Below are positions 41,878 through 60,399 of a DNA stretch of 64,000 bases, piece by piece. The translations under genes were made by a program, and so were the position numbers. The first letter of the stretch is position 1; the number at the start of each line of letters is the position of its first letter. The notes beneath the pieces are model-generated. The model saw nothing but the letters and a program-made list of their open reading frames with translations, ran no database searches and had not been told where the DNA came from. Source of the DNA: Candidatus Poseidoniaceae archaeon (GTDB lineage Archaea > Thermoplasmatota > Poseidoniia > Poseidoniales > Poseidoniaceae); contig CBFIJH010000005.1 of NCBI GenBank assembly GCA_965662895.1, positions 57,928-121,927 of the forward strand, written 5' to 3'.

Positions 41878-41900
41878 GGCCACTTTATTTTGTAGGCCAT

Positions 41901-41916
41901 AGTATAATATATAACA
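41901..41916 (+). promoter_or_regulatory. TATA-like element (tagtataatatataac) about -25 from the ATG at 41934
   Basis: AT-rich box in the 56-bp gap between two large genes, with the right spacing for a leaderless archaeal promoter. Confidence 0.35.
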
Positions 41917-41933
41917 GAACTCCAGTGCGACGC

Positions 41934-45130: not shown

Positions 45131-45901
45131 TCACTGTTCTGGTAACGTACCGTTCAAACTGTCAGGATTGTCCTCAAGTGGACCCCATTCTGTCTTGGTT
45201 CGATGGAGGCCAAATCGCTTTGCATAGAGGAATCTAAGGTTCTTCCAGCCATCACCCCACGTGTGGATTTCAGCATCTCCAACGCGTTCTCGGTATGGGA
45301 CGGAAATTTCGATGGCTTTCTTACGACCAAGATGCTTGCGTGCAAGGATCTTGATCTCTTCTGAAAGTGGCATTCCATCGTTGGTTGGGCGCATCTTTGG
45401 ATTCTCAAAAATCGACTTGCGGAACACCCACATCCCCGATTGCGAATCCTTAATTCCATAACCGAAGAGGAGTCGAGCATTGAATGAGAGAGCCCAATTT
45501 CCAAATCCGTGGAGACCAGACATGGATCCGTCTTCTGCCATGCTCAGGCGATCACACGTGATGAAATCGAGGTCATCATCCAAAAGTCGCTTGACCAATT
45601 CAGGAATCAATTCTGCAGGATAGGTACAGTCTGCATCCATTGTGACAATGATGTCGTTCGATGCAACAACGAAACCCGTACGGTATGCCCGGCCGTAACC
45701 CTTCCGTGGTTCAAGGTGAACGCGAACATCTTTTTCAAGGGCGATTTCTCGAGTACGATCGGTCGATGAACCATCGACAATCATGATTTCGAGGGATTCG
45801 CACCATCCGCGCGGAATTGCATCAACGGTCGCACCAAGTGCTTCCTCTTCATTTCGAGTGGGAAGAAGAACCGTCACAGATACTGGTAGTACCTCGTCCA
45901 T
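45131..45901 (-). CDS. GT2-family glycosyltransferase (dolichyl-phosphate hexose synthase-like) with a C-terminal membrane helix
   Basis: VLLPTRNEEEAL, MIVDGSSTDRT, MDADCTYPAE (DxD). Start at MDEVLPVSV. Confidence 0.75.
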   Translation of the reverse strand: MDEVLPVSVTVLLPTRNEEEALGATVDAIPRGWCESLEIMIVDGSSTDRTREIALEKDVRVHLEPRKGYGRAYRTGFVVASNDIIVTMDADCTYPAELIPELVKRLLDDDLDFITCDRLSMAEDGSMSGLHGFGNWALSFNARLLFGYGIKDSQSGMWVFRKSIFENPKMRPTNDGMPLSEEIKILARKHLGRKKAIEISVPYRERVGDAEIHTWGDGWKNLRFLYAKRFGLHRTKTEWGPLEDNPDSLNGTLPEQ

Positions 45902-45954
45902 GTTGTGACGATAGGCAATGAGCGTTTCAATGCATTGCCTCAACGGTCAAACGA

Positions 45955-46947
45955 TTACGACCATCGAGCACGTAGGCGACGGAGTGAAAGTTTCACAGCA
46001 AGACGAATCTTTCTCCATTTTGACAAGGAAGGACGCTTGCTAAACACGTCGCCTGAGCGGCGCACGATCTCGTGGAAAATAGCATCATAGGCTTCACACA
46101 TCAGTTGTGGTTGCAATTGGGATTTTGAATCAAGATATTCAAACAAATGCTGTGCTGATTCTTGGTGTCGTCGAACGATTTCGATGTATTCTTGAACAAA
46201 AGACTTCCACCGATGGTTGGTTCCAAATTCAGTATTCCCGAGCTCTGAAATATCGATATTGTATTCGCCTAATGCATTGATTGGAAGGTAAATTCGACCG
46301 CTTCGATAATCTTCAGAAACGTCACGAAGGATGTTGATGAGTTGCAATTGGATGCCCATATCGATGGCGTGAATTCTCCCTCCGGCATCCTCACATCCAT
46401 AAATTTCGATGAGAACCAAACCTACTGCAGAAGCCACCTTGTAACAGTATGCACGGACCTCGTCCCAAGTTTTGTGACGAACTTCGAACAGATCGTCTTC
46501 CATTCCTTCGATAATGGTTTCAAAATCAGAAAGTCGAACAGGGAAATGCTTGAACACTTCGTTGATGGCGATGAAAATGGCTTCATCTTGCGTTGCTGAT
46601 TCATCACCTGCGAACAATCGTGTGAGTCGCTCCTTGGCATCAACAAGGGCCATCAATCGGTATCGGTGCTCCTCAGGAGGGTTGTTCATTGCCGTTTGGT
46701 GGATGCTCTGGAGAAGTCCGTCTCGCTCATCCACGAGTTTGTTGAGGGCTTCGGATTCTCGAACAACTGGTCGAGAGTCTCCATCAGCAATATCATCGAG
46801 GTAACGGCACAGTGCGTAGACCGCATGAACTGCACGACGTTTCTTGAAGGGCAGTGCTGAGAAACTAGCAAAAAATGTGGATGACGCACGACGACAAATT
46901 TCTTCACATTCAAGAAAAGCCTCTTCAATGGAAGTTGTTTTGTTCAT
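45955..46947 (-). CDS. crtB: Phytoene/squalene synthase family (phytoene synthase)
   Basis: Asp-rich motifs YALCRYLDDIADG and ILRDVSEDYRSGRIYLP. YCYKVASAVG. Confidence 0.8.
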   Translation of the reverse strand: MNKTTSIEEAFLECEEICRRASSTFFASFSALPFKKRRAVHAVYALCRYLDDIADGDSRPVVRESEALNKLVDERDGLLQSIHQTAMNNPPEEHRYRLMALVDAKERLTRLFAGDESATQDEAIFIAINEVFKHFPVRLSDFETIIEGMEDDLFEVRHKTWDEVRAYCYKVASAVGLVLIEIYGCEDAGGRIHAIDMGIQLQLINILRDVSEDYRSGRIYLPINALGEYNIDISELGNTEFGTNHRWKSFVQEYIEIVRRHQESAQHLFEYLDSKSQLQPQLMCEAYDAIFHEIVRRSGDVFSKRPSLSKWRKIRLAVKLSLRRLRARWS

Positions 46948-46969
46948 TTTTTCACCTCAATTCTATTGT

Positions 46970-47425
46970 TTATGAATGCGTGTTGTTTTCCTTGTTCATC
47001 TGCATTGTAATGAAATGGATGGCGAGTCCTACTGGCATGAGCATAACGCCGAACAAAATTGCCACTTGCGCAGCAGTTTTGTTGATTTCTGTTTCAACAC
47101 TTCGCTTCCAAATCCATCGCGTGACGATGATGTCACCAATCACAAAGTGCGTCCATGCAAGAACAGCACCATCGTCTGTGCCAAGGACTTCAGCAAGGCC
47201 CGAAACGAAACCGCTCAGGGTACCGTCCCCGATCATATCGCTGAGAGCACCGAGATTCATTGCAAGAACGATCAGATAAGCAATCAACGGTCCAAGGACA
47301 AACCATGGTCCATCCATCCATTTTTTCGTTCGTTCAGCATATGGTTGAAGGAGCATAAGCATCCAGAACGGACCAACCCACATCGATGCTGCGAAGAAGG
47401 CGACCAGAAGCATTGTTTCAACCAT
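46970..47425 (-). CDS. DUF4281/ABA4-like 4-TM membrane protein
   Basis: 151 aa. FAASMWVGPFWMLMLLQPYAERTKKWM resembles the DUF4281 opening. Family call is from memory. Sits between crtB and crtI. Confidence 0.45.
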   Translation of the reverse strand: MVETMLLVAFFAASMWVGPFWMLMLLQPYAERTKKWMDGPWFVLGPLIAYLIVLAMNLGALSDMIGDGTLSGFVSGLAEVLGTDDGAVLAWTHFVIGDIIVTRWIWKRSVETEINKTAAQVAILFGVMLMPVGLAIHFITMQMNKENNTHS

Positions 47426-47988
47426 TAAATCACCTTCTCATATGCTTGTTCGATTTCGTCAATCGAGTTCTCGGTCGGATAATAGGTGTCACTTTCCCAC
47501 TGGATGACGCCGTTTTGGTCGATGAGGAACAACGCAGGTGTTCCAGGAAGACCATAGTATTCAAAAATGGATTGACTCAAATCGGCTTGATCTTCGATTC
47601 GTTGGATTGAATCATCGTCTGTTGGCAAAACAATCGGCCATGGAGTGTAGTGGTCGCTTTCCGTGAAACCAAATTCTTCAGCGACGTCCTCTTTGGTTTC
47701 AAATCGGAGGTACCGTTCAACAGAAACGATTTGCAAAGGTGGCTCCTGATTCATCCAATCGTTGTGATGTTCTCGCAAATCATCGGTCCAATCTTTGCAG
47801 CCAGTACATCCTACTCCGATGAAGAGCACGAGGACGGGCCCCTCGCTCAAGTTTTCTTTCATCGAATACATTGGTCCACCGTCTTCCTCCCGGTCGAGGG
47901 TTTCGACAGTAAAGACACGTCCGTCCTCAGGGGTCGGTTCAATGCAGCCTGCCAGGAGCAAAATGAGCACAAGGGCAACGAAACGCAC
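47425..47988 (-). CDS. Thioredoxin-fold lipoprotein (TlpA/ResA-like thiol-disulfide oxidoreductase)
   Basis: MRFVALVLILLLAGC (lipobox) and a CxxC GCTGC after the strand VLVLFIG. Stop overlaps the DUF4281 start by 1 nt. Confidence 0.65.
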   Translation of the reverse strand: MRFVALVLILLLAGCIEPTPEDGRVFTVETLDREEDGGPMYSMKENLSEGPVLVLFIGVGCTGCKDWTDDLREHHNDWMNQEPPLQIVSVERYLRFETKEDVAEEFGFTESDHYTPWPIVLPTDDDSIQRIEDQADLSQSIFEYYGLPGTPALFLIDQNGVIQWESDTYYPTENSIDEIEQAYEKVI

Positions 47989-47997
47989 GTTGCTCCC

Positions 47998-49605
47998 TCA
48001 AGCGTTGGTCGGCGTTCCTGCTTCTTTCGCAGTTGTCACCTTTCGTTGAGCTTTCCGTCCACGAGGCGAGCGGCGAATGCCTTCGAACCAAGTATCGACG
48101 CCGTTCCAATCCGGGTCAATTCCGAGGTCATCCAACACGAGTTTGCTGCTGATTCGAGCGCTCTCAAAGATGGTCGGTAGTCCACTGCCGGGATGTGTAC
48201 CTCCACCGACAATGTAGAGGTTGTTTGCTTCTTCAAACCGGTTGTGCGGGCGTCGCCAGAGCATTTGTTTGAGGTCGTGTGTGAGGTTAAACACTGCACC
48301 GCGATAGATGTCAGATGCACCCCAGTCATCGGGTGTGATTACGGTCTCTGAAACGATGTGATCGCCAATATCATCGTACCCAAGTTTTGCCAGTTGTTTG
48401 ACAACAATTTCTCTGAAATCTGCTTTGATGTCATCCCAAACGATGCTCTCGTGCTGGTTTGGTACAGGTACGAGAACGTAAATCGTCGAGTGTCCCTCAG
48501 GAGCGAGCGAGTCATCGGTTATTGACGCATTTTGAACGTAGACGGATGGGTCGTCCCATGTCAAACGATGATTGGTGATATCTTTGAGATTCTTTTCGTA
48601 CTCTGAGGATGCATAGATTTGATGATGTGGTAAATCGTATTGCTTGTCAACACCCAAGTAGAGCATAAAGGTTGAACAAGAATATCCTTTCTTTTCCAGT
48701 TTCTTATCGGACCATTTCTTGCGCTTCTCATTGGGGACGAGTGTTGTCATTGCATGAGCAAAATCTGCGTTGACAACCACTCTGTCGGCCATTATTTCAG
48801 CGCCGTCAATCCGGACGCCTTTGACGGTTTTACCTTCATAGATGAGGGACTCAACCGGAGTGCTGAGTCGAATATTGACGCCCATTTCTTCCGCAATTTC
48901 AGCCATTCGAGCAGTGATGCTTCCTAGGCCTCCTTTGGCGTGGAAAATGCCGTGCTCGTACTCAAGGAAGGCGAGAATCGTAAACAGCGAAGGGGCATGG
49001 AACGGGCTCATTCCCAGGTACTTGGTTTGGAACGACATTGCGAGTCGAATGCGTTCATCATCGAAATGCTTACTGAGATCTCCAGCAACGCTGGCCCAAG
49101 GCTTGAGGACAGAAGCCACCCGCATGGCTCGTCTCGAAAGAATGTCCAACGGACTTCGCCATGGAGTTTGCAAACACTTCTTGCTGAGGTCAAGCTTTCT
49201 TCGGTTTTGTTTGACGTACTTTTTGAATCCTTCAGCGTTTTTGTCACCGGCAAGCTCTCGAATACGTTCTGTCATTTCTTCGAGGTTGCTTGTCGCATCG
49301 ATGTGGCCTCCAGCGCCAAAGACAAGCCTGTACATCGGGTCCAATGGCATCAAACCGAGTTCCTTGTGTGCGTCTCGACCAATTGCTTGGAAGATCTCTT
49401 CGATAACTTCTGGATAGTGGAAGAAGGTTGGTCCACGGTCGAACGTGTATCCGTCCTTTGTGTACAATCTGGTGCGTCCACCGACGGCATCGGCTTTCTC
49501 GAGTACGGTCACGTTGACACCTGAATGGGCGAGGAGAAGTGCAGAAGCAAGACCGCCCGGTCCTGACCCTACGATGATTGCGGTTGGTTTATTCTGAGTA
49601 CTCAT
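47998..49605 (-). CDS. crtI: Phytoene desaturase family FAD-dependent oxidoreductase (CrtI/CrtD-like)
   Basis: N-terminal dinucleotide fold IIVGSGPGGLASALLLAHSGVNVTVLEKADAVGGR. ~500-aa CrtI-like core plus a basic C-terminal extension. Confidence 0.8.
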   Translation of the reverse strand: MSTQNKPTAIIVGSGPGGLASALLLAHSGVNVTVLEKADAVGGRTRLYTKDGYTFDRGPTFFHYPEVIEEIFQAIGRDAHKELGLMPLDPMYRLVFGAGGHIDATSNLEEMTERIRELAGDKNAEGFKKYVKQNRRKLDLSKKCLQTPWRSPLDILSRRAMRVASVLKPWASVAGDLSKHFDDERIRLAMSFQTKYLGMSPFHAPSLFTILAFLEYEHGIFHAKGGLGSITARMAEIAEEMGVNIRLSTPVESLIYEGKTVKGVRIDGAEIMADRVVVNADFAHAMTTLVPNEKRKKWSDKKLEKKGYSCSTFMLYLGVDKQYDLPHHQIYASSEYEKNLKDITNHRLTWDDPSVYVQNASITDDSLAPEGHSTIYVLVPVPNQHESIVWDDIKADFREIVVKQLAKLGYDDIGDHIVSETVITPDDWGASDIYRGAVFNLTHDLKQMLWRRPHNRFEEANNLYIVGGGTHPGSGLPTIFESARISSKLVLDDLGIDPDWNGVDTWFEGIRRSPRGRKAQRKVTTAKEAGTPTNA

Positions 49606-49650
49606 GAATCCACCAGTGAGAAACGGCTTATAAATCGACGTTTTGAACCA

Positions 49651-50940
49651 CTAGTCGGCTGGCTGTATCTCGCCTTCCCAGAACGTTTTCGTGATGGTTT
49701 TTTGCGTCCTGGAATCTTTTGAATACGGTAGTTCGACGATCGAAGCAAATTCATCGAGATAAGGCCCCATTGATGAGATAAGATCGATGTCTGGATGCCC
49801 ACGAAGAACCATTCCATCCATGTACATCAACGAACGGATGATTGGGAAGGCTTCCTCACCAAAGCGACAGCCAGCCAGGACAGCGATGCGCACCGTTTTC
49901 ATCATCTGCTGTGTGAGACTAACCTCGCTGACGGATTTGCCGACAAATCCATCATAGATTTCGTGCATTTCACGCATGTATCGCGCCTTCGCCTCACCAG
50001 TTGGAGGTGTGTCTGCCATGGTCAACATTGCTTCAAACGCACCCTCAAGTTCTCCCTTCGCAAGATAGTAGAAGAAGCCGAACAGCGCTGAACGTACACT
50101 TTCTGGAGCGTGAGAAATTGCACCAGTATCAATAAAGGTGAATTGCCCGTTTTCATCGACCATCGCATTTCCTGGGTGAAGGTCGCCGTGGAATGTCCCG
50201 ATACCAAACATGAAAGCACCGTGGATGCGAAACAACTGCAACAAGTCGTCCCAGGATAGATTTCCTTTCGAAAGTCTAGATTCGAGAGTAGGGGCTTTGA
50301 TGTGTTCCATGACCAAAACGTGTTGATTTGAGAGTTCTGGCCAAACTTTTGGAAAGTTCAACAAGGGCATGGGGAATTGGTGTTCGACCTCTTTGGCTTT
50401 CGATTGAAGCAACTCAGCACCTTGAATTTCGTTTCGCAAGTCAAGCTCTCGAAGTGTGTAATCCTCAACGTGCTGAAGCAAACCGACTGGATTGCCCACT
50501 TTTCGAAGTCGAGGATTCAAAAACAGTCCAATTCTAAGCCATCGGCGCATTCGAGCGACATCTTTGCGGAACGATTTCTCAAAATCCGCCTTGATGATCT
50601 TCACCACCACTTGACTTCCGTCTTTGAGGACACCACGGTGTACCTGTCCGATGCTTGCTGCTGCAAAGGGTTCTTCTTCGAAGGACTCAAAGGCATCAAG
50701 GAATCCGGCAGGAGCTCGACTTCGAATCAGCGACATCGAATCCTCCTTCGGAATCGAATTTGCTCTCTGATACAGCGATTGAAGTTGTCTGCACTTTTCT
50801 TCAGACAGTAGATCGGGACGGAGTGCGAAGATTTGAGTGAGTTTAACAGCAAGCAACCCCATCTTCTGTATTTTATCGAGGTCGGCAGGGCCGTCCTTCG
50901 TAATCATGCGAATAAAACGAACGAATGTCAGGAGGCGCAT
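49651..50940 (-). CDS. ABC1/UbiB-family atypical protein kinase
   Basis: FEEEPFAAASIGQVHRG, VVVKI (Lys), HGDLHPGNAMVD (catalytic loop), FIDTG. Confidence 0.8.
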   Translation of the reverse strand: MRLLTFVRFIRMITKDGPADLDKIQKMGLLAVKLTQIFALRPDLLSEEKCRQLQSLYQRANSIPKEDSMSLIRSRAPAGFLDAFESFEEEPFAAASIGQVHRGVLKDGSQVVVKIIKADFEKSFRKDVARMRRWLRIGLFLNPRLRKVGNPVGLLQHVEDYTLRELDLRNEIQGAELLQSKAKEVEHQFPMPLLNFPKVWPELSNQHVLVMEHIKAPTLESRLSKGNLSWDDLLQLFRIHGAFMFGIGTFHGDLHPGNAMVDENGQFTFIDTGAISHAPESVRSALFGFFYYLAKGELEGAFEAMLTMADTPPTGEAKARYMREMHEIYDGFVGKSVSEVSLTQQMMKTVRIAVLAGCRFGEEAFPIIRSLMYMDGMVLRGHPDIDLISSMGPYLDEFASIVELPYSKDSRTQKTITKTFWEGEIQPAD

Positions 50941-50965
50941 AGTAAAAAAATCTCCTTTTCATTTA

Positions 50966-51787
50966 TCAATCGGCGTTTTTTTTCAGGAGTGCTTTGATAG
51001 GATTTGCAAAGAGAGCAGGTGTTGTTTTCACCCATTCATCAAATCCTTCACGTTGTTGCAAATCAACTTCCGACATCTTGACACCGCTTACATAACGAAG
51101 GAGAAGTGTGAGGATAAGGGGACCAATGAGTACTGGAAGAGCGTCAAAACCCGAAACGATGACAGCAAAACCGCCAATCGACCACCACAAGATTGCTTCT
51201 CCCAAATGGTTCGGGTGACGAGTGACTGAGAACATTCCATCCGTTTTGAGGTGACCTGGGCCGTGCATAGCACGATATTTTTTCAACTCCATGTCTGCTT
51301 TGTGTTCCAAGGATAAGCCAAGCAGGAAACCGAAAAGACAAGCCAAGGACAATGCAGTAGAAGTCACGGTCCACTCAATGGATTCCGATTGTTCTGGAAT
51401 GAGGGCGAAAATTGGAAGCGCAACCACAAGGAGGAAAACCGCTTGAAGCATGAATACCTGAAGGAAACTGATCCACCACCAATTGTTCCCAGCAACCTCG
51501 CGCATGCGAACATAGCGTGGATCTTCCCCACGATTCTTTGTTCGATAATGCAATACAACTGCAAGACGCAGTCCCCACAGGGTGACACATGCGAGGCAGA
51601 GTAGTGCAGCAAGATTCGTGGCATCGGTGAAGAGAAATCGAGTCCAAGCGATGAGGACAAAACCCATTCCCCATAAGACGTCCATAACCGTAACATTGCC
51701 GGTTGATAGCGTCTTAATCCATGCAATTGTGACGTATGCGAGGACAACAAGAACGGTCAGCAAATTCAATCCAATGTCCACCATCAT
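50966..51787 (-). CDS. DUF1295 / steroid-5-alpha-reductase-like membrane protein
   Basis: ~8 helices. C-terminal SVTRHPNHLGEAILWW is typical of the ICMT/DUF1295 superfamily. Start overlaps the trmB-like stop. Confidence 0.7.
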   Translation of the reverse strand: MMVDIGLNLLTVLVVLAYVTIAWIKTLSTGNVTVMDVLWGMGFVLIAWTRFLFTDATNLAALLCLACVTLWGLRLAVVLHYRTKNRGEDPRYVRMREVAGNNWWWISFLQVFMLQAVFLLVVALPIFALIPEQSESIEWTVTSTALSLACLFGFLLGLSLEHKADMELKKYRAMHGPGHLKTDGMFSVTRHPNHLGEAILWWSIGGFAVIVSGFDALPVLIGPLILTLLLRYVSGVKMSEVDLQQREGFDEWVKTTPALFANPIKALLKKNAD

Positions 51788-53181
51788 GCAGACGGTTCCG
51801 CTGGTTGTTCTTCATTGTTCATGATGATATGGTAGCGCCAGAGGTCTTCTGGCTCACCGGTTCCATCGTATCTTCGGACGTTGACGTTTCCATCTTTCGG
51901 GAATCGAGTCATCAAGGCTCCTTCGATGATACCATCATCAAGTTCCCACATGGGTAGTACGTCTGGATCTTCGCTTGGAGGATGGTCGAGTCCAACCTGC
52001 ACATGGAAGACCGGATCGATACCGTATTCAAGCCGACCAAGTCCAGCAAATTCCCACCAATCCATCATTTCATCGAGGAATTCGACGTGATTTTCGATTG
52101 AACGGAGTGAGAAAGCCAACTCGTGTCCGACACGATTTCCGACTTGACGCAACATTCGAGCCAAGTCAATACCGAGGATTTTCAAATTTGATAATCTGCC
52201 CTTCGTAAGCTCCTGCCGTGCTTGGTTGACTTCCGTTCCAGCTGCGAGGAAGGCATCTGGGTCGAATGGTGTGTCGTGTTCGGGAAGGTCGTCAACGCCG
52301 AGGGCACCGACTAGGGAATCGAGGAAGGAACCCTCGCCGATTGTCAGTCGAAGTGGGTCATGGATTCTCCCTTTCGAAAATCGGGCTTCTGCGACTTCAA
52401 ACTGTACTGCGTCTTCCCAGATTGTATCGATTAGATTCTCTTGTGCTTTAGCGAAAGGTTCGCTTTCGATGACGAGTGCAGCGTCTTCTTTTCCACGTCC
52501 AACTGGATTTTCTTCGATGTTGAGGAACTGAACAACGTGTGTACAATCCTGGAGGAATCCTTGGGAATCAAGGTCATCTGAATGTTTGATTTCAATTGAA
52601 TCATGAAGTTTCTGGAAGAAACGTGTTGTTCGGCGATCAAGTTGGGCAATGACCTGGACCACAACACCCTTTTCAGCAACTGAATTGATGGTTTCTAGGG
52701 CTTCACTTCTGCAGAGGTGAAGAATACCGTACCGTCCGAGGAGTAGGACGAGCCGTTCTTCAGCATCCTCTGCCATTCGCTCAAGCCTGCGGTAAATGTG
52801 GCTTCGTTCTTTGAGAACTGCGAATCGTGGTTCATCACGCTGGCGGCGGTTCGCCTCGTAGGAAGCATTTGCTTCCGTGATGCCTTTGGAGAGCTCATTG
52901 AATCCTTCTTCGAGGTTATCCAGTTGCCTGCGGCGCATCTCAATAATGTGCTGCAACGCTTCATCAACACGCAAGCTTGAAAACAACATCGGCCGGTCAG
53001 CAGTTGCTGTAACGATACCCATTTCTTGGAGCCTTGAGAGGCTGTTGTACGCATCCAGTCGCGTTGTTTGCAATTCCTTTGCGAGTTCGCTTGCACGCAT
53101 GTTTGGATTGTTGCCAAGCACCATGATTGAGCGTACTTCTCGTTCAGTGAGACCAGCTTCGTTCAGAAGGCTGTCCCACAT
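51784..53181 (-). CDS. TrmB-family transcriptional regulator with a large C-terminal sensor domain
   Basis: Start at MWDSLLNEAGLTEREVRSIMVLGNNPNMRASELAKELQTTRLDAYNSLSRLQEMGIV (TrmB wHTH). ~380-aa C-terminal region. Confidence 0.65.
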   Translation of the reverse strand: MWDSLLNEAGLTEREVRSIMVLGNNPNMRASELAKELQTTRLDAYNSLSRLQEMGIVTATADRPMLFSSLRVDEALQHIIEMRRRQLDNLEEGFNELSKGITEANASYEANRRQRDEPRFAVLKERSHIYRRLERMAEDAEERLVLLLGRYGILHLCRSEALETINSVAEKGVVVQVIAQLDRRTTRFFQKLHDSIEIKHSDDLDSQGFLQDCTHVVQFLNIEENPVGRGKEDAALVIESEPFAKAQENLIDTIWEDAVQFEVAEARFSKGRIHDPLRLTIGEGSFLDSLVGALGVDDLPEHDTPFDPDAFLAAGTEVNQARQELTKGRLSNLKILGIDLARMLRQVGNRVGHELAFSLRSIENHVEFLDEMMDWWEFAGLGRLEYGIDPVFHVQVGLDHPPSEDPDVLPMWELDDGIIEGALMTRFPKDGNVNVRRYDGTGEPEDLWRYHIIMNNEEQPAEPSA

Positions 53182-53711
53182 TAGTCGGATCCCCCAGTGA
53201 CGGATGAGAGGCTCTTGAGGATTCGAGCAACGTGTCGGCGTGGACGGAACAACCAATCGTATACATGGTGGATTCGATTGTCAGGCCCAATCAAGAAACT
53301 GGATTTGGCAGGAAACATTCCGAGATGGACTGGAACCAGGAATTTGTCTGCGACTTCCCTTTCCGGATCGGCAAGAAGTGGAAACGGAAGTCCACCAATT
53401 TCTTTCTTGAACTTGGCATGCGATTCGCTTGTTCCTTCCCCAATTCCAACGACTTTGCATCCTGCTGAGACGAACAAATCGTGTTGTTCCTTGAAGGTGA
53501 GACAGCCTCGCTTGCACGTCGGTGACCCATCCTTCGCATAGAAGAACAAAATTCGCCATGAATCATTCAGCGATTTGCTGTCAAAAACGTTGCCTACGTC
53601 ATCAGTAAGCGTGAATTCAGGTGCGAGTTCTCCAATCAAATCTTTGCTCACTCGCTTCGCCTCATTGTGGGTGAGGCGCTCTGCTGTCAATATGACTTCC
53701 CCCATGTGCAT
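53181..53711 (-). CDS. bcp: Peroxiredoxin, Bcp-type (AhpC/TSA)
   Basis: APEFTLTDDVGNV, FFYAKDGSPTCKRGC (P-x3-T-x2-C peroxidatic Cys). Start at MHMGEV; the track begins upstream at a TTG codon. Stop and the trmB-like start share a TAATG. The start coordinate may be off by 1 nt: the printed sequence and the track frame disagree by one base in this region. Confidence 0.65.
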   Translation of the reverse strand: MHMGEVILTAERLTHNEAKRVSKDLIGELAPEFTLTDDVGNVFDSKSLNDSWRILFFYAKDGSPTCKRGCLTFKEQHDLFVSAGCKVVGIGEGTSESHAKFKKEIGGLPFPLLADPEREVADKFLVPVHLGMFPAKSSFLIGPDNRIHHVYDWLFRPRRHVARILKSLSSVTGGSD

Positions 53712-53716
53712 CACCC

Positions 53717-54328
53717 TCAGATTGGCAGAATGTGACGCATTCGCAACGCTTTTGTTCGCAGATAATTTTTGTTTTCTGAGCAAAATCCTGCTTTGTGAGA
53801 TACACGGTCGACAACCGATATGCCGTGCTGTTCGAGTTGCTCGACCTTGTCCGGGTTGTTGGTCATGAGACGAACGCTGTCATATCCTATATCAGTGAGG
53901 ATGTGGGCTGCGATTGTGTAGTCACGGCCATCGGCGGGTAAATTGAGCGCAAGATTAGCATCGAGTGTGTCAAGCCCACGGTCTTGTAGGTTGTAGGCCT
54001 GCATCTTTGCAAATAGTCCAATGCCGCGACCTTCCTGGCGGAGGTAAAGAACGATGCCACGTCCTTCTTTTTGGATGGTCTTTAATGCACGTTGCAACTG
54101 TGGTCCACAATCGCATCGAAGACTTCCAAGAGCGTCTCCAGTTAGGCATTCTGAGTGGATGCGGACAAGAGGGGGGGTTTGATCGTTCATGTCGCCGTGA
54201 TAGATGGCTGCGTGTTCGGAGCCATCTTTCGGGTCGATGTATGATCGTATGCGGAACTCACCATACTTCGTGGGGAGTTTTGCGTCAGCAGGAACTGCCG
54301 TAAACTTCTGGTTAGGATTTACCTTCAT
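53717..54328 (-). CDS. ribA: GTP cyclohydrolase II
   Basis: RIHSECLTGDALGSLRCDCGPQL (zinc Cys triad), LRQEGRGIGL, HGISVV. Confidence 0.85.
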   Translation of the reverse strand: MKVNPNQKFTAVPADAKLPTKYGEFRIRSYIDPKDGSEHAAIYHGDMNDQTPPLVRIHSECLTGDALGSLRCDCGPQLQRALKTIQKEGRGIVLYLRQEGRGIGLFAKMQAYNLQDRGLDTLDANLALNLPADGRDYTIAAHILTDIGYDSVRLMTNNPDKVEQLEQHGISVVDRVSHKAGFCSENKNYLRTKALRMRHILPI

Positions 54329-54417
54329 GTTTTACTTCAACGACGTTGTAGGTATAAAGGACTGTTTCTGAACAAGCCTGTTTGTGCTAATTTGTTAAAC
54401 GGTCCTTCAAATACCTG

Positions 54418-54933
54418 TTGTGGATTATTCGGATTATGACTGGCGACTTCGATGTAGGCGTGGCTGCTGCGGTCACCAACGATTCCGGCATCCTACTGGT
54501 CAAAGAATCCAAGGGCCCCTACGCCGGGTTCTGGGGCTTGCCAAAAGGATACGTCGAGCCGAACGAATCGATCGAATCAGCCGTACTACGGGAACTCAAA
54601 GAGGAAACGCACCTCGACGGGAAAATCTCAGGATTCCTTGGCTTAAGAACGACCAAGACAAACAAAGGCGTTGGTTTGTTTCTCTGCTACAAAATCGAAC
54701 CAACGAGCACGGAAATCCGACCACAACAGGATGAGATATCCGATGTGAAGTTTTTCAATCTTGAATCCTTTGACCAACTCGAATGGGTTTCTGCAGCAAT
54801 GCGAGGGTTTGCTGAAGTAGCACTCAAAGACACATCGCTCCCCCTTGTCGACCTGAGCCATGAATCAAAGCGCCCGTATCATCTCGTATTCAGCGATGGG
54901 CGTGCAACACTTTTGGATGAGGTGATTCAATGA
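54418..54933 (+). CDS. NUDIX hydrolase
   Basis: Nudix box GLPKGYVEPNESIESAVLRELKEETHL. Confidence 0.7.
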   Translation: MWIIRIMTGDFDVGVAAAVTNDSGILLVKESKGPYAGFWGLPKGYVEPNESIESAVLRELKEETHLDGKISGFLGLRTTKTNKGVGLFLCYKIEPTSTEIRPQQDEISDVKFFNLESFDQLEWVSAAMRGFAEVALKDTSLPLVDLSHESKRPYHLVFSDGRATLLDEVIQ

Positions 54934-56420
54934 TTGACGTTCGTCGGATTGATGCCAATGATAAGCCTCTCAATCCCGAAGGGACCCATATTGTCTATTG
55001 GATGACCAGTGCACGACGGGCACGATGGAATCATGCCCTCGATCACGCCATCGAACTTGCCAATGAACACAATGTTCCACTCCTAGTCGTCGAATGTCTG
55101 GCGCTTGGGCACCGATGGGCAAACGATCGCATACACACCTTCGTTTTGCAGGGAATGATTGACAACAGAAAGCTGTTCGAATCGAGTGCTGTAACGTATG
55201 TCCCTTACGTCGAGACCAAGAAAGCCCAAGCCGGAGGTCTACTGCAATCCTTCTCCGAAGATGCAGTCGCCGTCGTCATCGACTATTTCCCGACCTACAT
55301 GCCCCGCGATGTTGCCCAGCGAGCCAAGGATTTAGCCAAATGCTCGGTCCAATGCATCGACAGCAACGGAATCGTTCCTCTGGCGGCTCCTCAACGCTCT
55401 TTCTCAACGGCACATTCCTTCCGCCGATACATCCACAAGAATGTCCTCAACTACATCGCAAGTCCGCCACACTCCGAACCTCTCAAGCACCTGAAGGATG
55501 TACCTAACGGTACGAACATCGTTAAGGAATGCTTTGAGCGCGTCGATGTTCCCTTAACACCGCTCGAGTTTATTTGGAGAGTTTCAGAAGCCTCACGAGA
55601 AGGACGAGAAGCCCTCGCTGTATTGGACATCGATCACGAAGTTCCACCAGTCGACGAACGACGTGGAGGCTCGGTTACAGCTCGTACAGAACTCAAGAAA
55701 TTCATCGAGCAGAAACTTGAATCGTATCACGTTGATCGTAATCACCCGGAGCGTTCTGGAGGAAGTGGCTTGTCTCCATGGCTCCACTATGGTCACATTT
55801 CGACGTTCGAAATCATCCATGAAGTGCTCGATTCACAGGGTTGGAATCCAATGAAAATCACACCACCGCACAACGGTCGTCGGGCCGGTTGGTGGGGTAT
55901 GAGCGAAGGTGCTGAAGCCTTTTTGGACCAGGTCATCACATGGAGAGAACTTGGATTTGTTTACTGTCATGAACATCCGGATCACACCGCTTACGGCACG
56001 CTTCCAGAATGGGCCAAAGCCACGCTTGAGGAACACGAGAATGACGAACGGCCCTACATCTACACCTTCGAGCAGTTGGAACGTGGTGAAACGCATGACC
56101 CGTTGTGGAATGCAGCACAAATTCAACTTCGCAAAGATGGAATCATTCACAACTACCTCCGAATGCTATGGGGTAAGAAGGTGTTGGAATGGTGTCCCGA
56201 TCCGGAAACTGCATGCAAGTGGTTGATTCGTCTCAATGATCGCTGGGCCCTCGACGGACGAGATCCGAACTCCTACACTGGCATCTTCTGGATTTTCGGT
56301 CGCTTCGACCGAGGATGGTTCGAACGCTCCGTCTTTGGAAAGGTACGGTACATGACATCCGCATCAACCCAACGTAAGTTCAAAACTGAGGATTATATAC
56401 GAAAATACGCGGATTCTTAA
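54930..56420 (+). CDS. phr: Class II CPD photolyase (cryptochrome/photolyase family)
   Basis: C-terminal FAD region YTGIFWIFGRFDRGWFERSVFGKVRYM matches the class II signature (the G.HDR.W.ER.hFGK.RYM type). ATGA overlap with nudix. Confidence 0.8.
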   Translation: MIDVRRIDANDKPLNPEGTHIVYWMTSARRARWNHALDHAIELANEHNVPLLVVECLALGHRWANDRIHTFVLQGMIDNRKLFESSAVTYVPYVETKKAQAGGLLQSFSEDAVAVVIDYFPTYMPRDVAQRAKDLAKCSVQCIDSNGIVPLAAPQRSFSTAHSFRRYIHKNVLNYIASPPHSEPLKHLKDVPNGTNIVKECFERVDVPLTPLEFIWRVSEASREGREALAVLDIDHEVPPVDERRGGSVTARTELKKFIEQKLESYHVDRNHPERSGGSGLSPWLHYGHISTFEIIHEVLDSQGWNPMKITPPHNGRRAGWWGMSEGAEAFLDQVITWRELGFVYCHEHPDHTAYGTLPEWAKATLEEHENDERPYIYTFEQLERGETHDPLWNAAQIQLRKDGIIHNYLRMLWGKKVLEWCPDPETACKWLIRLNDRWALDGRDPNSYTGIFWIFGRFDRGWFERSVFGKVRYMTSASTQRKFKTEDYIRKYADS

Positions 56421-56429
56421 CATTAGGAG

Positions 56430-57827
56430 ATGCGTATGCCGATTTTTGAACACACCGCAACCTTTCCATTTTCTCGTCAAACCGTCTGGGATTGGCATGC
56501 TCGACCCGGAGCTGTTCGCCGCATCATGCCGGATTGGGAAGGAATCCGTCCTGTTGAAGTCGGTGGAATTACCGATGGAGCCATCACCGAATTTCGAATG
56601 AAAATTGGTATTGTGCCACAACGATGGGTGGCAAAACATCACGGTTACATGGAAGGCGAACAATTCTGTGATGATATGGTGAAGGGTCCTTTCGGGCGCT
56701 GGAATCATGTCCACAAATTCGTTGAGAACAACGAAAATGAAATGCAAATTCACGACCGTATCGATTGGAAATTACCGTTTCATTTCTTTACCCGAATTGG
56801 TGCTCCAATCATGGTCATGCCCCGTGTCAATCAAATGTTCAAGCATCGTTCGCGACGCATTCTTGCGGATTTAAATCGCCAACAGATGTTCAAAGATGCA
56901 CCACGAAAAAGAATTCTCATTACTGGCTCGACAGGTCTCATTGGAACACAACTAGGGGCATTTCTTGAGACCGACGGTCATGATGTCCATCGACTCTTGC
57001 GGCCGAGTACACGACTCCACGCCGATCAGGATTCAACAAAGGTTGTCAAATGGAACGATCGAACCGGAGAAGTTACGCAAGGTTCGCTTGAAGACTTCGA
57101 CGTCGTGATTCACCTTGCCGGTGCTGGAATTGGGGAGAAACGCTGGAGTAAGAAACGAAAGAAACTCATTTCTGAAAGTCGCGAAATCCCAACACGTCAT
57201 CTTTCCAATGCTTTGGCGGAACTAAAATCACCTCCATCGCTGTTCATTTGTGCTTCCGCAGTTGGGTTTTACGACAATCGAGGCGATGAAGACCTTGACG
57301 AAAACAGTAGCATCGGCGAAGGCTTCCTCGCTCGGATTTGTAAGAAGTGGGAAGATGCCACTGAACCTGCTGTGAATGCTGGCATCCGGACAATTTTGAT
57401 GCGAACTGGGATCGTTACCACGGCGGCAGGTGGTATGCTTCAACAGATTCTCTTGCCTGCAAAATTCGGCGCTTTGGGTCCCATAGGTGGCGGTCGCCAA
57501 TGGCAATCATGGATTTCTTTGGACGACCAAATCTATGCAATTCATTTCCTTATGAACCATGAAACTGCAAGTGGAGTTATCAATCTCACTGCTCCAAACC
57601 CGGTCACACAGAAACAATTTGCAAAGACACTTGGGAAGGTTTTACGACGTCCAGCATTTGCTCCAGCACCTGGATTTGTCATGAAAATTCTCTTTGGTGA
57701 GATGGGGAAATCGCTTATTCTGGATGGGCAAAAAGTCCATCCGAAGCGACTGTTGAATTTGGGATACAAATTTGAACATGAAACGCTCGAACCAGCGCTT
57801 CGTGATGCTTTAGGACGGTTCAATTAA
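56430..57827 (+). CDS. SRPBCC (polyketide-cyclase-like) domain fused to a TIGR01777/YfcH-type NAD-dependent epimerase (DUF1731)
   Basis: N-terminal ~150-aa SRPBCC fold, then ILITGSTGLIGTQLGAFL (Rossmann) and a C-terminal DUF1731-like tail. This architecture is familiar from bacteria. Confidence 0.8.
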   Translation: MRMPIFEHTATFPFSRQTVWDWHARPGAVRRIMPDWEGIRPVEVGGITDGAITEFRMKIGIVPQRWVAKHHGYMEGEQFCDDMVKGPFGRWNHVHKFVENNENEMQIHDRIDWKLPFHFFTRIGAPIMVMPRVNQMFKHRSRRILADLNRQQMFKDAPRKRILITGSTGLIGTQLGAFLETDGHDVHRLLRPSTRLHADQDSTKVVKWNDRTGEVTQGSLEDFDVVIHLAGAGIGEKRWSKKRKKLISESREIPTRHLSNALAELKSPPSLFICASAVGFYDNRGDEDLDENSSIGEGFLARICKKWEDATEPAVNAGIRTILMRTGIVTTAAGGMLQQILLPAKFGALGPIGGGRQWQSWISLDDQIYAIHFLMNHETASGVINLTAPNPVTQKQFAKTLGKVLRRPAFAPAPGFVMKILFGEMGKSLILDGQKVHPKRLLNLGYKFEHETLEPALRDALGRFN

Positions 57828-57852: not shown

Positions 57853-60399
57853 ATGTCATGGGCGAACATGCTCGGGCGCAGCATTGCGATTGGCATTTTT
57901 GCCTTGCTCCTGCTCTCGATTGTACCATCCGTCCAAGCAGATGACAGTCAGGCATCATCAAATTTGCTCACTGACGGCGTGTCATCAAACGGTTACGTTT
58001 GCGATCCAGACGGTTGTTCCCCGAACGATGGGACCGACTGGTGGCGGATTGATGCGTACAAGGGCGATATTGTGAGCATCACATTTTCTGGCTCGATGAG
58101 CAATGCTGCATGGTGGTGTCCTGGCGACGGTTGGGAAGGTGATTTTTCGATGCACGATGAGAGTGGCAGTCAAATTGCTTCCATGGGTCGCAGCGATGAC
58201 AATCCTTCCGGAACGCTTTCGAAAACCATGTCACAACCTGGCTCAGTTTACGTGAAAATCAAAGCGAAGAACTCATGGTGCAATGATGGATTTGATTACA
58301 CGTTGCTCGCCTCCATCGATAAGACCGATCGAGACACAGATGAGGATGGCTTTGTTGACGCTGATGATGATTGCGATATCATCGTCGGGACATCCACCAA
58401 CGATCGAAAAGGCTGCATTGATTCTGATTCTGATGGATGGTCCGACACAGATTCGGGATGGGATGTTCAAAACGGTGCGGATGCGTTTGAATCCGATCCG
58501 ACACAATGGAGAGACCGTGATTTTGATGGGTATGGTGACAACATACTCGGAAATCAACCCGATCACTGTCCCGATAGCCGTGGTTACTCAACATCCGATC
58601 GGTACGGCTGCATTGATTCAGATGGTGACTCATACTCGGATGCGGACCCGGGAGGGTTGGACGGTTTGGAACCTTGGTTTGCCCATCCCGATGGCTTTGC
58701 TGATGCGTTCCCGTTCGAATCGACGCAATGGCACGATACAGACGGTGATGGCTACGGCGACAATTGGGAGGATCCCATGTGGAATGAATCCCACACGGAT
58801 TGGGGGATAGGCCAGTGGCTTGAAATTGCCAATCAACCGGATGCCTGTCCATTCATTACGGGTACTTCCTTCGCAGATCGATACGGTTGTCCCGATGCGG
58901 ATGGTGACGCTTGGTCAGATCCAGGTGAAAATTGGACCTCCGTTGAAGGCGCAGATGCGTTCCCGCTCGAACCAACGCAATGGCGTGACAGAGATTTTGA
59001 CGGGTATGGTGACAATCAGTCCGAAGGTGCACGACTCATCGATGATTTCCCAGACAACCCAACCCAATTCAGAGATTCGGATTTTGACGGATGGGGTGAC
59101 AATCAAACGTATGGAGCTACCCAAATCGATGACTTCCCTATGGTTCCGAGTCAGTATCGTGATTCGGATGGTGATGGCTACGGTGACAACATCAGCGGTT
59201 TCGAGGGTGACGTCTGCGTGAACTCAAATGCTGAAGAAGTCGAGAGTGGATGGATTTCAAGGTTTGACCGTTTGGGCTGTCGTGACGTTGACAGCGATGG
59301 TTATTCTGATCCAAGCGATGATTGGATTTCTCACCCACAAGGATTTGCCGACGCTTTCCCAAATGACGCTTCTCAGTGGTTCGACACCGACAATGATGGG
59401 TTTGGTGATAATACGGAGTATTTCGATGGACTTGCTTGGCGCCTCGCTTACAGAGGAGATGGCTGTCGAACAACCTACGGGCTCTCAACTTTCGACCGAT
59501 GGGGTTGTCCTGATTCGGATGAGGATGGGTGGTCCGATCCAACTCCGTACTGGCTTGCGAGTCCGGGTGGTATGGGTGATGCGTGGCCTGAAGATTCTAC
59601 GCAATGGCACGATCGAGATGGAGACGGTCGAGGAGACAATCCTTCCGGAACGAAAGCGGATGTGTGTCCTTCTGAGCCAGGAACCTCGGTCGGACCGAGT
59701 TCCGGTGGTGATAGATGGGGATGTCCGGACACCGATGGTGATGGATGGTCGAATCTTGGAGATGCTTTCATCCATGAGCCAACGCAATGGCGGGATACGG
59801 ATGGAGACGGATACGGGGATGAAGTTGATGGCAATGAACCAGATGCTTGCCCCACGATACGCGGGACCTCGATTCTCGACCGGTTTGGTTGTCGTGACAC
59901 CGACGGAGATGGTTGGTCTGACCCAACCGATGATTGGGATGCACACCCCTACGGCCGAGCGGATGCTTTTCCAACCGAAGCGTTGCAATGGAAAGACACG
60001 GATGCAGATGGATTCGGTGATGTTCCACTTGGTGCTCTTCGGGATGACTGTCCAGAAGACTTCGGTACCTCTGTGCGCGATCTGCAAGGATGCGAAGACA
60101 ACAACGGTGATGGTTGGTCGAACGAATACGGTGAGTGGAATGCTGCACTTGCCATCATGGGTGAAGATCCGGCTGCATCTTGGCTGACGTATCTCATCGT
60201 TGGAATTTCCTTCATTCTTGGCGCATCGGCGGCTCTTGTTGTTCGAACCATGCGTACAGAAGATGAGAAGATGCTGACGGAAGACTTGCTGGACATAGGG
60301 GGAATCGTGCAACAGTCATCTCCTGAACCAAATCCAACGCAACTTCCAGATTTGGCCATACCTCTACCACCGCCTCCGGGAGGTGACCATGATGCGTAA
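57853..60399 (+). CDS. Large type-I surface protein: PPC-like N-domain plus ~15 TSP3-like Ca-binding repeats, a C-terminal TM anchor and a Pro-rich tail
   Basis: Signal peptide MSWANMLGRSIAIGIFALLLLSIVPSVQA. Repeats DSDGDGWSD..DAFP.E.TQW.D.D.DGYGDN. Helix LTYLIVGISFILGASAALVV followed by PEPNPTQLPDLAIPLPPPPGG. Confidence 0.75.
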   Translation: MSWANMLGRSIAIGIFALLLLSIVPSVQADDSQASSNLLTDGVSSNGYVCDPDGCSPNDGTDWWRIDAYKGDIVSITFSGSMSNAAWWCPGDGWEGDFSMHDESGSQIASMGRSDDNPSGTLSKTMSQPGSVYVKIKAKNSWCNDGFDYTLLASIDKTDRDTDEDGFVDADDDCDIIVGTSTNDRKGCIDSDSDGWSDTDSGWDVQNGADAFESDPTQWRDRDFDGYGDNILGNQPDHCPDSRGYSTSDRYGCIDSDGDSYSDADPGGLDGLEPWFAHPDGFADAFPFESTQWHDTDGDGYGDNWEDPMWNESHTDWGIGQWLEIANQPDACPFITGTSFADRYGCPDADGDAWSDPGENWTSVEGADAFPLEPTQWRDRDFDGYGDNQSEGARLIDDFPDNPTQFRDSDFDGWGDNQTYGATQIDDFPMVPSQYRDSDGDGYGDNISGFEGDVCVNSNAEEVESGWISRFDRLGCRDVDSDGYSDPSDDWISHPQGFADAFPNDASQWFDTDNDGFGDNTEYFDGLAWRLAYRGDGCRTTYGLSTFDRWGCPDSDEDGWSDPTPYWLASPGGMGDAWPEDSTQWHDRDGDGRGDNPSGTKADVCPSEPGTSVGPSSGGDRWGCPDTDGDGWSNLGDAFIHEPTQWRDTDGDGYGDEVDGNEPDACPTIRGTSILDRFGCRDTDGDGWSDPTDDWDAHPYGRADAFPTEALQWKDTDADGFGDVPLGALRDDCPEDFGTSVRDLQGCEDNNGDGWSNEYGEWNAALAIMGEDPAASWLTYLIVGISFILGASAALVVRTMRTEDEKMLTEDLLDIGGIVQQSSPEPNPTQLPDLAIPLPPPPGGDHDA
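58330..60103 (+). repeat. Intragenic tandem TSP3-like repeats
   Basis: Repeated gatggtgatgg / gacggtgatgg blocks. Multiple long spurious ORFs in the other frames. Confidence 0.6.

Follow-up and report, generated by a model that had tools for sequence, protein, structure and literature searches.

Clustered light or photo-oxidative regulons that contain an embedded regulator are a kind of system well known in bacteria. Genes encoding RudS, photolyase, short-chain dehydrogenase/reductase (SDR), FAD oxidoreductase and GTP cyclohydrolase are typical of bacterial light regulons (PMC11417400, PMC9758184), RudS genes being typical of light-responsive operons (PMC11417400), and the LitR regulon of Pseudomonas comprises PhrB, an SDR, an FAD oxidoreductase, FolE and others (PMC9758184). 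Here, we analyse an archaeal cluster in which photolyase, antioxidant and carotenoid genes surround a gene encoding a TrmB-like regulator. The stretch of DNA that was analysed, referred to throughout as the window, comprises 64 kb of contig CBFIJH010000005.1 (assembly GCA_965662895.1, positions 57,928 to 121,927 of the forward strand), and the genes in question occupy its positions 45131-57827. The host belongs to the Poseidoniaceae (Marine Group II a), and its nearest relatives include metagenome-assembled genomes (MAGs) labelled MGIIa-L2.

Marine Group II, still uncultured, ranks with the most abundant archaea of surface seawater, and we know of no account of how its members sense or respond to sunlight. 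In haloarchaea, Bat and Brz control bop, crtB1 and brp within the bop regulon. In the TrmB family, the operators of TrmB and TrmBL1 adjoin the B recognition element (BRE) and the TATA box, and their position decides between repression and activation. A literature search revealed no paper that connects Poseidoniales with either TrmB or a photolyase-phytoene cluster; on photolyase, the study of Poseidoniales by Rinke et al. reports only that the rhodopsin-bearing genera also have this enzyme (PMC6461757). In the planktonic archaeon 'Ca. Kariarchaeum', a pelagic member of the Heimdallarchaeia, crtB, crtI and two uncharacterised genes are reported to form a putative operon, and the genes present are for linear carotenoids only (PMC12137139).

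We favour, with slightly better than even confidence, the reading in which the locus is a conserved multi-promoter cluster for defence against sunlight and photo-oxidative stress, and in which a short promoter element, the RAAC-N5-TATA box, serves the regulator encoded within the cluster as its operator. New with respect to the bacterial systems are the type of regulator, the promoter box and the host.

Gene order and the RAAC-N5-TATA box

Related loci were collected by a scan of one genome per species, which yielded 80 loci, nearly all from Poseidoniaceae, Poseidoniales or unclassified archaeal MAGs (4 of the 80 carry bacterial bin names), and synteny was assessed by tblastn of 16 window proteins against all of them. 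Every locus that is long enough shows the gene order YfcH- phr- (nudix-) / ribA+ bcp+ trmB+ (DUF1295+) ABC1+ crtI+ (trx+ ABA4+) crtB+, which is kept across clades whose regulator is 98, 92, 75 and 70% identical to that of the window (clades are named below by this identity), and the cluster is conserved in at least four genus-level clades of Poseidoniaceae. Conservation in relatives had been named beforehand as a test of the grouping, and the core of the cluster has passed it. Since the same order recurs in all of the long-enough related loci, the arrangement can be judged to lie far beyond chance. The core consists of photolyase, YfcH, bcp, the regulator and crtI, usually also ribA, ABC1 and crtB, while nudix, DUF1295, trx and the ABA4-like gene are accessory. 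Relatives at 58% regulator identity keep YfcH-phr-nudix / (ribA) bcp-trmB-(ABC1)-crtI-like, with entirely different flanks, and a lineage of 68% GC content (locus L095, regulator 45% identical) keeps only ribA-bcp-trmB, with DUF1295 nearby. In L095 and in every Poseidoniaceae-type locus bcp immediately precedes trmB, and the overlap of their stop and start codons is preserved in all clades. No other gene of the cluster is as conserved as the regulator (95-99% identity vs 72-93% for its neighbours).

Promoters were found by aligning orthologous intergenic regions. Four of them, those of nudix/phr, ribA, ABC1 and crtI, share an architecture of RAAC, 5 nt and a TATA box that begins 29-30 nt before the ATG, which is the geometry expected of leaderless archaeal mRNAs. 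Two stand back to back in the divergent spacer: the nudix/phr promoter (AAACGGTCCTTCAAA, 54397..54411, plus strand; AAAC GGTCC TTCAAA), whose TATA begins 30 nt before ATG 54436, and the ribA promoter (AAACAGTCCTTTATA, 54353..54367, minus strand; AAAC AGTCC TTTATA), also at 30 nt. The TATA of the crtI promoter (AAACGTCGATTTATA, 49629..49643, minus strand; AAAC GTCGA TTTATA) begins 29 nt before the ATG, and the ABC1 promoter (AAACGCCGATTGATA, 50964..50978, minus strand; AAAC GCCGA TTGATA) overlaps the DUF1295 stop codon and has a T7 run downstream. The two spacer boxes of the window constitute an 11-nt inverted repeat (AAGGACTGTTT / AAACGGTCCTT) whose arms are separated by 29 nt. The initial annotation, made from the sequence of the window alone, had proposed a search for palindromes shared by the divergent region and the sequences upstream of crtI and ABC1; a common element does occur at these places, but the box is non-palindromic.

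The pattern AAAC-N5-TTNAWA has five matches in the window against 1.6 expected, and four of the five are the promoters described above. The fifth, AAACGGTCCTTGATA (31090-31104, plus strand), is near-identical to the nudix-side box and is the only match outside the cluster; it is probably a chance occurrence, since it lies inside a long open reading frame (ORF; 1035 aa, without Pfam match) with which the next ATG is not in frame. Across related loci totalling 1.35 Mb there are 197 matches; 177 fall 5-60 nt upstream of nudix, crtI, ABC1 or ribA, and about 12 of the other 20 are likewise cluster promoters, belonging to a crtI gene truncated by the contig end or to a RudS-like gene. A relaxed pattern was found upstream of nudix in 63/65 loci, crtI in 62/64, ABC1 in 39/75 and ribA in 31/73, and in these loci it did not occur ahead of bcp, trmB and GT2, nor ahead of the two control genes from the flanks; the nudix/phr promoter block as such is present in 74 of 75 loci. 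A survey of eight representative sequences, restricted to ORF starts whose upstream gap was 40 nt or longer, gave a similar picture. A TATA box at -34 to -26 precedes 19 of the 95 starts; RAAC or AGAC is carried by all 13 cluster promoters and by none of the other six, one of which is a mis-called crtI start (in L055).

L095, which had been left out of the derivation of the pattern, served as an independent test locus. It contains a single match in 17.5 kb (0.01 expected; 1 of 200 shuffles reaches that), located 30 nt before the ATG of ribA-bcp-trmB. In a further archaeal lineage (L093), in which crtI is accompanied by an ABA4-like gene and a probable idi2, AAACGTCCCCTATATG stands ahead of crtI. 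The box and the regulator are co-inherited into distant lineages.

A box-like sequence was also seen inside the 3' end of the photolyase gene (AAACTGAGGATTATA, 56383-56397, plus strand). Its TATA begins 38 nt before the YfcH ATG, and 24 of 70 loci have the sequence, which may represent an internal promoter or a by-product of the conserved C-terminal peptide. The AACGNCGWT motif (palindrome AACGTCGTT, between the TATA box and ATG of ribA) was considered as a shared operator and was dropped, because it is widespread in the window (17 scattered matches) and conserved only within the window's genus. A scan for bacterial sigma-70 promoters and terminators revealed no enrichment and is irrelevant to an archaeal host.

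The box abuts the TATA, where the BRE lies, and is short and non-palindromic, as might be expected of a promoter-class signature for the basal machinery (an extended BRE, or the site of an alternative TFB/TBP paralogue) or for a factor encoded elsewhere. Such a signature would also fit the unusual closeness of all four promoters to the consensus and their leaderless form, a clear TATA at -30 being absent from most of the other starts in the window. However, RAAC is situated 5 nt from the TATA, about 3 nt beyond the canonical BRE, the box occurs in none of five genuine non-box TATA promoters sampled, and it travels with the ribA-bcp-trmB triad into the 68%-GC lineage. We consider this explanation unlikely, although it is the strongest of the alternatives; under it, co-expression of the genes would persist without the embedded regulator being their master.

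The minus-strand genes had initially been described as a 9-kb co-directional array. They are co-directional and packed, but the array is not a single operon, conserved TATA promoters being situated inside it before ABC1, crtI and GT2. Promoter alignments point to at least five units, namely nudix-phr-YfcH (unit 1), ribA-bcp-trmB-DUF1295 (unit 2), ABC1 (unit 3), crtI-trx-ABA4-crtB (unit 4) and GT2 (unit 5), and tight gene coupling is limited to units 1, 2 and 4. A promoter proper to crtI is present in all clades. ABC1 is provided with one in the window's clade and in the 75% clade, and in Poseidonia it follows trmB with a Shine-Dalgarno (SD)-like sequence only. The crtB, bcp and YfcH genes are regarded as internal to their units because they are preceded by SD-like sequences and no TATA; the ATG of crtB follows an SD-like GAGGTGA, and in Poseidonia crtB stands directly after crtI. 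Within 50941-50965, the T7 run lies 6-12 nt ahead of the ABC1 ATG; placed immediately before the point at which the next transcript would begin, it is plausibly an oligo-T terminator of archaeal type for the unit upstream.

The TrmB-like regulator and its proposed role

The candidate cluster regulator is a TrmB-family protein of 465 aa with a C-terminal V4R-like domain (51784..53181, minus strand). Its TrmB-type winged helix-turn-helix (wHTH; PF01978) spans aa 7-68 (34 bits vs a cut-off of 25.6), and PF01978 matches in all 13 aligned homologues. An AlphaFold (AF2) model of the whole protein (predicted local distance difference test, pLDDT, 68) comprises a winged helix (aa 1-70), a long helix (aa 72-98) and an alpha/beta domain (aa 119-257), the latter two at pLDDT 84-91, followed by a low-confidence linker (aa 270-338) and a C-terminal domain. 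In Foldseek comparisons, the N-terminal 260 residues match TrmBL2 (5bpd, E 4e-13), TrmB (3qph, E 1.7e-9) and 2f5t (E 1.2e-5), and the N-terminal half also matches PLD-fold proteins. The model thus predicts a TrmBL2/TrmB-like N-terminal half with a coiled-coil helix and a PLD-like domain. The C-terminal ~120-140 aa are predicted to fold like V4R/DmpR/Bet3, as a ligand-sensor domain, and unlike the sugar-binding subdomain of TrmB when the predicted model is compared. What had been taken for a '~380-aa sensor domain' resolves instead into the TrmBL2-type PLD-like domain, the linker and a V4R-like domain of ~120 aa.

At the sequence level, support for V4R is weak. Pfam V4R gave no match at E up to 1 in the 13 regulator homologues, and the PDB, searched by sequence with the regulator and with its C-terminal domain, yielded nothing useful, only fold comparison being informative. 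A sub-threshold match to MsvR was obtained from NCBIfam (E 3e-6, aa 358-462, 27 bits vs a cut-off of 220), and regulator homologues are labelled 'predicted hydrocarbon binding protein' in one source. The architecture is rare: 34 of 1.84 billion cluster representatives reach E 1e-30, of which about 10 are full-length proteins of 23-58% identity, the remoter matches covering the TrmB-like half only.

In the favoured reading, units 1-4 would each be transcribed from a leaderless-type promoter and switched together. The regulator would bind the RAAC box as its operator through the TrmBL2/TrmB-type half, and its V4R-like pocket domain would sense a small hydrophobic signal tied to light or oxidative damage. 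By binding the box of the unit that encodes it, the regulator is proposed to control its own synthesis as well. The regulator could bridge the 40-nt dyad of the divergent spacer as two dimers or as a tetramer, and since the box abuts the BRE/TATA, the bound regulator could recruit or exclude TFB/TBP. The combined output would be repair of UV lesions (photolyase), removal of peroxide (bcp), flavin (ribA) and a lycopene-type carotenoid (crtB, crtI). We infer light induction, the binding of the regulator to the box, the sign of regulation and the ligand, and the labels 'master regulator' and 'photoprotection' are to be read in the same conditional sense. Going further, the TrmB-V4R protein may be an unrecognised archaeal photo-oxidative sensor-regulator that activates the photolyase, peroxiredoxin, flavin and carotenoid genes via the RAAC box, with its V4R-like pocket binding a chromophore or a hydrophobic molecule generated by light or reactive oxygen species, such as a porphyrin, a photoproduct of flavin, a quinone or lipid in oxidised form, or a signal derived from carotenoids. 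This more specific proposal is tentative, a possibility that falls well short of probable.

Several points weigh against the favoured reading. Characterised TrmB-family sites are inverted repeats, and around the box no extended palindrome was found, no position being conserved beyond RAAC and TATA. The promoters have in common only four bases, the spacing and the TATA, with N5 varying, and in Poseidonia the ribA promoter has AGAC and a different spacing. Orthologous promoters are moreover not independent, so that the counts amount effectively to 4-5 promoter types from few deep lineages. No cysteine is invariant among the aligned regulator homologues, which makes an MsvR-like thiol switch unlikely. 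Finally, a full-length, 39%-identical paralogue of the regulator (L094, 8001-9389) stands in an unrelated context without bcp, and no box was seen upstream of it. Its neighbours encode a TPR protein, a HesB-like Fe-S assembly protein, an FMN reductase and ArsC; in another locus, L089, an Fe-S assembly/NifU gene also flanks the cluster itself.

The best structural match of the regulator, TrmBL2, is an archaeal chromatin protein, and the extreme conservation of the regulator relative to its neighbours could likewise be that of a global or chromatin-type protein residing in a constitutive neighbourhood of defence genes. As V4R-type pockets bind hydrophobic or aromatic ligands, the protein could also be a metabolic sensor of isoprenoid diphosphates, quinones or carotenoids exerting CrtR-type feedback; in Corynebacterium, isoprenoid diphosphates release a MarR-type regulator that governs light-inducible carotenogenesis (PMC6739363, PMC5401885). 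Under either version, the position of the regulator after bcp would be merely historical. On the other hand, TrmBL2 has no sensor domain, whereas the predicted fold of the cluster regulator includes one, the overlap with bcp is kept in all clades and the promoter box is cluster-specific. A global or metabolic role of this kind appears rather improbable, more so than a signature of the basal machinery; both would leave the co-regulation of the cluster intact and change the role of the regulator. That the carotenoid genes supply retinal for a proteorhodopsin, the cluster coupling light harvesting with repair, would also count against a defence function and is the most doubtful alternative: by established pathway knowledge crtB and crtI provide the first steps toward beta-carotene and retinal, and all rhodopsin-bearing Poseidoniales genera also encode photolyase (PMC6461757), but the neighbours are repair and antioxidant genes, and neither the cluster of any clade nor the 36 window ORFs scanned include lycopene cyclase, blh or rhodopsin genes.

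If the cluster is indeed controlled by its own regulator in response to sunlight, it would be to archaea what the LitR/CarH light regulons are to bacteria, built from unrelated parts, and the V4R fold would gain a new biological input. The cluster would also tie the poorly understood ABA4-like/DUF4281, DUF1295, SRPBCC-YfcH and ABC1 proteins to one stress response. The locus offers four promoters with a shared 15-nt architecture and one conserved candidate regulator of ~465 aa that can be made recombinantly, and it yields a clear prediction for diel metatranscriptomes, thus providing a testable lead on the archaeal response to sunlight.

Cluster genes and their neighbours

Gene identities were established from an ORF map and from Pfam and NCBIfam profile searches of the window proteins. 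These confirmed 13 genes, ten on the minus strand (ribA to GT2) and three on the plus strand, with the identities and order of the initial annotation. The tight junctions noted there can be read directly from the sequence: the bcp stop and trmB start share TAATG (1-nt overlap), trmB and DUF1295 overlap by 4 nt (ATGA), trx and the ABA4-like gene by 1 nt, and nudix and phr by 4 nt (ATGA). The divergent region, by contrast, had been put at ~90 bp (54329-54417) and is longer; nudix most likely begins at ATG 54436, which gives a spacer of 107 bp (54329-54435). The nudix-side TATA box lies only ~12 nt ahead of the alternative TTG start at 54418.

On the plus strand, the Nudix hydrolase gene (54436..54933; PF00293 E 4e-21), absent from the 75% clade, is followed by phr, encoding a class II cyclobutane pyrimidine dimer (CPD) photolyase (54930..56420; TIGR00591 E 1.5e-110, 371 bits, below the cut-off of 550). 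The photolyase has full-length matches to the Methanosarcina mazei enzyme (2XRY, E 2.5e-71, aa 20-494) and the rice enzyme (3UMV, E 1.6e-59); in methanogens, the antenna of class II photolyases is the deazaflavin 8-HDF. The third gene encodes a fusion of SRPBCC and SDR39U1/YfcH (DUF1731) domains (56430..57827; TIGR01777 314 bits, above cut-off), which aligns with 3OH8 across aa 12-462 and for whose orthologues a Polyketide_cyc N-terminal domain is on record.

On the minus strand, ribA (53717..54328) encodes GTP cyclohydrolase II (PF00925 E 5e-68; TIGR00505 257 bits, above cut-off). A bacterial-type RibA is unusual in archaea; its flavin would serve the photolyase and CrtI, both of which require FAD. 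It is followed by bcp, for a bcp/PrxQ-type peroxiredoxin (53181..53711; PF00578 E 1.5e-26), and, downstream of trmB, by genes for a DUF1295 membrane protein (50966..51787; PF06966 E 5e-50), present at this position only in clades whose regulator is at least 91% identical, and an ABC1/UbiB-family atypical kinase (49651..50940; PF03109 E 1e-43; TIGR01982 173 bits, below cut-off).

The carotenoid unit consists of crtI, of the phytoene desaturase family (47998..49605; TIGR02734 E 1.7e-145, 486 bits vs a cut-off of 238), a gene for a Trx-fold lipoprotein with a CTGC motif and lipobox-like LLAGC (47425..47988; weak AhpC-TSA and Thioredoxin matches), an ABA4-like/DUF4281 small membrane protein gene (46970..47425; PF14108 E 6e-21) and crtB, encoding a phytoene synthase of the SQS_PSY family (45955..46947; PF00494 E 1e-56), all on the minus strand. 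Since equivalog-level CrtB models fall below their cut-offs, the crtB product is only presumed to be phytoene synthase. An assignment of crtB and crtI as the squalene genes HpnD/HpnE was rejected, crtI scoring 486 bits on the CrtI model vs 49 on HpnE and only one SQS_PSY gene being present. Among the related cluster loci, trx and the ABA4-like gene are confined to the window's clade. Outside it, crtI, an ABA4-like gene and a 350-aa gene of IMPDH/FMN_dh fold, probably a type-2 isopentenyl diphosphate isomerase (IDI), stand in a row in L093 (4421-7521), a marine archaeal contig with MCM and GatB neighbours; this row supports a carotenoid-related role for prokaryotic DUF4281. Bacterial ABA4-like homologues adjoin heme or unrelated genes and are uninformative on carotenoids.

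Two crtI alleles are found in the window's genus, one in L008, L016, L017 and L023, the other in L001, L009, L010, L026, L027 and L074. The window allele is divergent, being only 64-67% identical to every other clade, while the other shares 77-79% identity with the 75% clade. As the adjoining ABC1, trx and crtB are ~90% identical in both allele groups, it looks as if crtI alone was replaced in situ, with retention of the promoter box.

Other clades carry additional genes within the cluster. In the 75% clade a gene with TudS (2-thiouracil desulfurase) and DUF1722 domains, which resembles the tRNA 4-thiouridine desulfidase RudS (L039 6183-7139, minus strand; also L087 4214-5164), lies between phr and YfcH under a RAAC-N5-TATA promoter of its own (AAACTGCCGTTCATA); a RudS-like gene stands beside YfcH in the 58% clade. 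The 75% clade also contains a CarF/TMEM189-type lipid desaturase gene (L039 12664-13332, minus strand; PF10520 E 3e-39) between ABC1 and crtI, on the opposite strand. CarF is a plasmalogen desaturase required for the singlet-oxygen signalling of light-induced carotenogenesis in Myxococcus, and such a gene is odd in an archaeon with ether lipids. The theme of light and oxidative stress that the initial annotation discerned gains support from these RudS-like and CarF-like insertions, photoprotection itself still being conjectural.

The GT2 glycosyltransferase gene (45131..45901, minus strand; PF00535 E 6e-25), originally counted as a member of the array, is probably a housekeeping dolichyl-phosphate hexose transferase gene outside the regulon, because it is served by a conserved promoter of its own that lacks the RAAC-N5 box, is much more conserved than crtB (82-98% vs 45-55% identity across the same clades) and adjoins crtB only in some clades, lying 3-5 kb away in Poseidonia behind BNR and GT4 genes. 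Its best NCBIfam matches are AglJ and DPhHxTase. A CruG-like carotenoid glycosyltransferase was rejected (CruG score of 34 bits vs a cut-off of 600), the conservation pattern being that of a housekeeping gene. The start of GT2 is probably ATG 45901 rather than TTG 45943, and independent gene calls on identical contigs also begin at ATG 45901.

Very acidic surface proteins rich in repeats are encoded on either side of the cluster (41862-44195 and 57853-60399), and one of these proteins carries low-density lipoprotein (LDL)-receptor class A repeats. The flanking protein of 848 aa, in which Asp/Gly-rich repeats were seen by eye, has no Pfam match; its gene is syntenic with the cluster in most clades and has no RAAC box. 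Scans of the 64-kb window for tRNA genes and Rfam families gave no matches.

Relation to known regulatory systems

The haloarchaeal bop regulon resembles the Poseidoniaceae cluster in that an archaeal cluster-encoded regulator links carotenoid synthesis to a light-related function. It differs in that Bat has GAF/PAS domains, and here the partners are repair and antioxidant genes, with no opsin, brp or blh gene linked. MsvR, the V4R redox regulator of methanogens, whose gene diverges from an oxidative-stress operon, shares with the regulator described here the combination of wHTH and V4R-type domain, adjacent antioxidant genes and a divergent promoter region. The DNA-binding half of the Poseidoniaceae protein, however, is of TrmB type and twice as long, and the homologues of this protein lack invariant cysteines.

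The TrmB, TrmBL1 and TrmBL2 proteins of Thermococcales and Halobacterium have the same TrmB wHTH, long coiled-coil helix and PLD-like domain. In the predicted model of the cluster regulator, a linker and the V4R-like domain replace the sugar-binding C-terminal subdomain of TrmB, and the genomic context is that of photolyase, peroxiredoxin and carotenoid genes instead of sugar metabolism; no palindromic TGM-like site was found at the cluster promoters. The crtB-crtI operon of 'Ca. Kariarchaeum' differs from the Poseidoniaceae cluster in that no linkage to photolyase or a regulator is reported for it (PMC12137139).

The closest parallel in gene content is provided by the LitR/CarH regulons, whose regulators are MerR-family proteins dependent on B12 or LOV (Pseudomonas PplR/PmlR, Thermus LitR/LdrP). 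Photolyase, SDR, FAD oxidoreductase, GTP cyclohydrolase, RudS and carotenoid genes are common to these regulons and to the cluster family described here, and in both the regulator is encoded inside the cluster and several promoters share one operator, which is putative in the archaeal case (PMC9758184, PMC11417400). The 13 cluster and 3 flanking proteins scanned contain no MerR, B12-binding or LOV/PAS domains. Unlike its bacterial counterparts, the candidate regulator is a TrmB-family protein with a V4R-like domain and would act at archaeal TATA-type promoters, and the cyclohydrolase is RibA, of the flavin branch, where the bacterial regulons have FolE, of the pterin branch.

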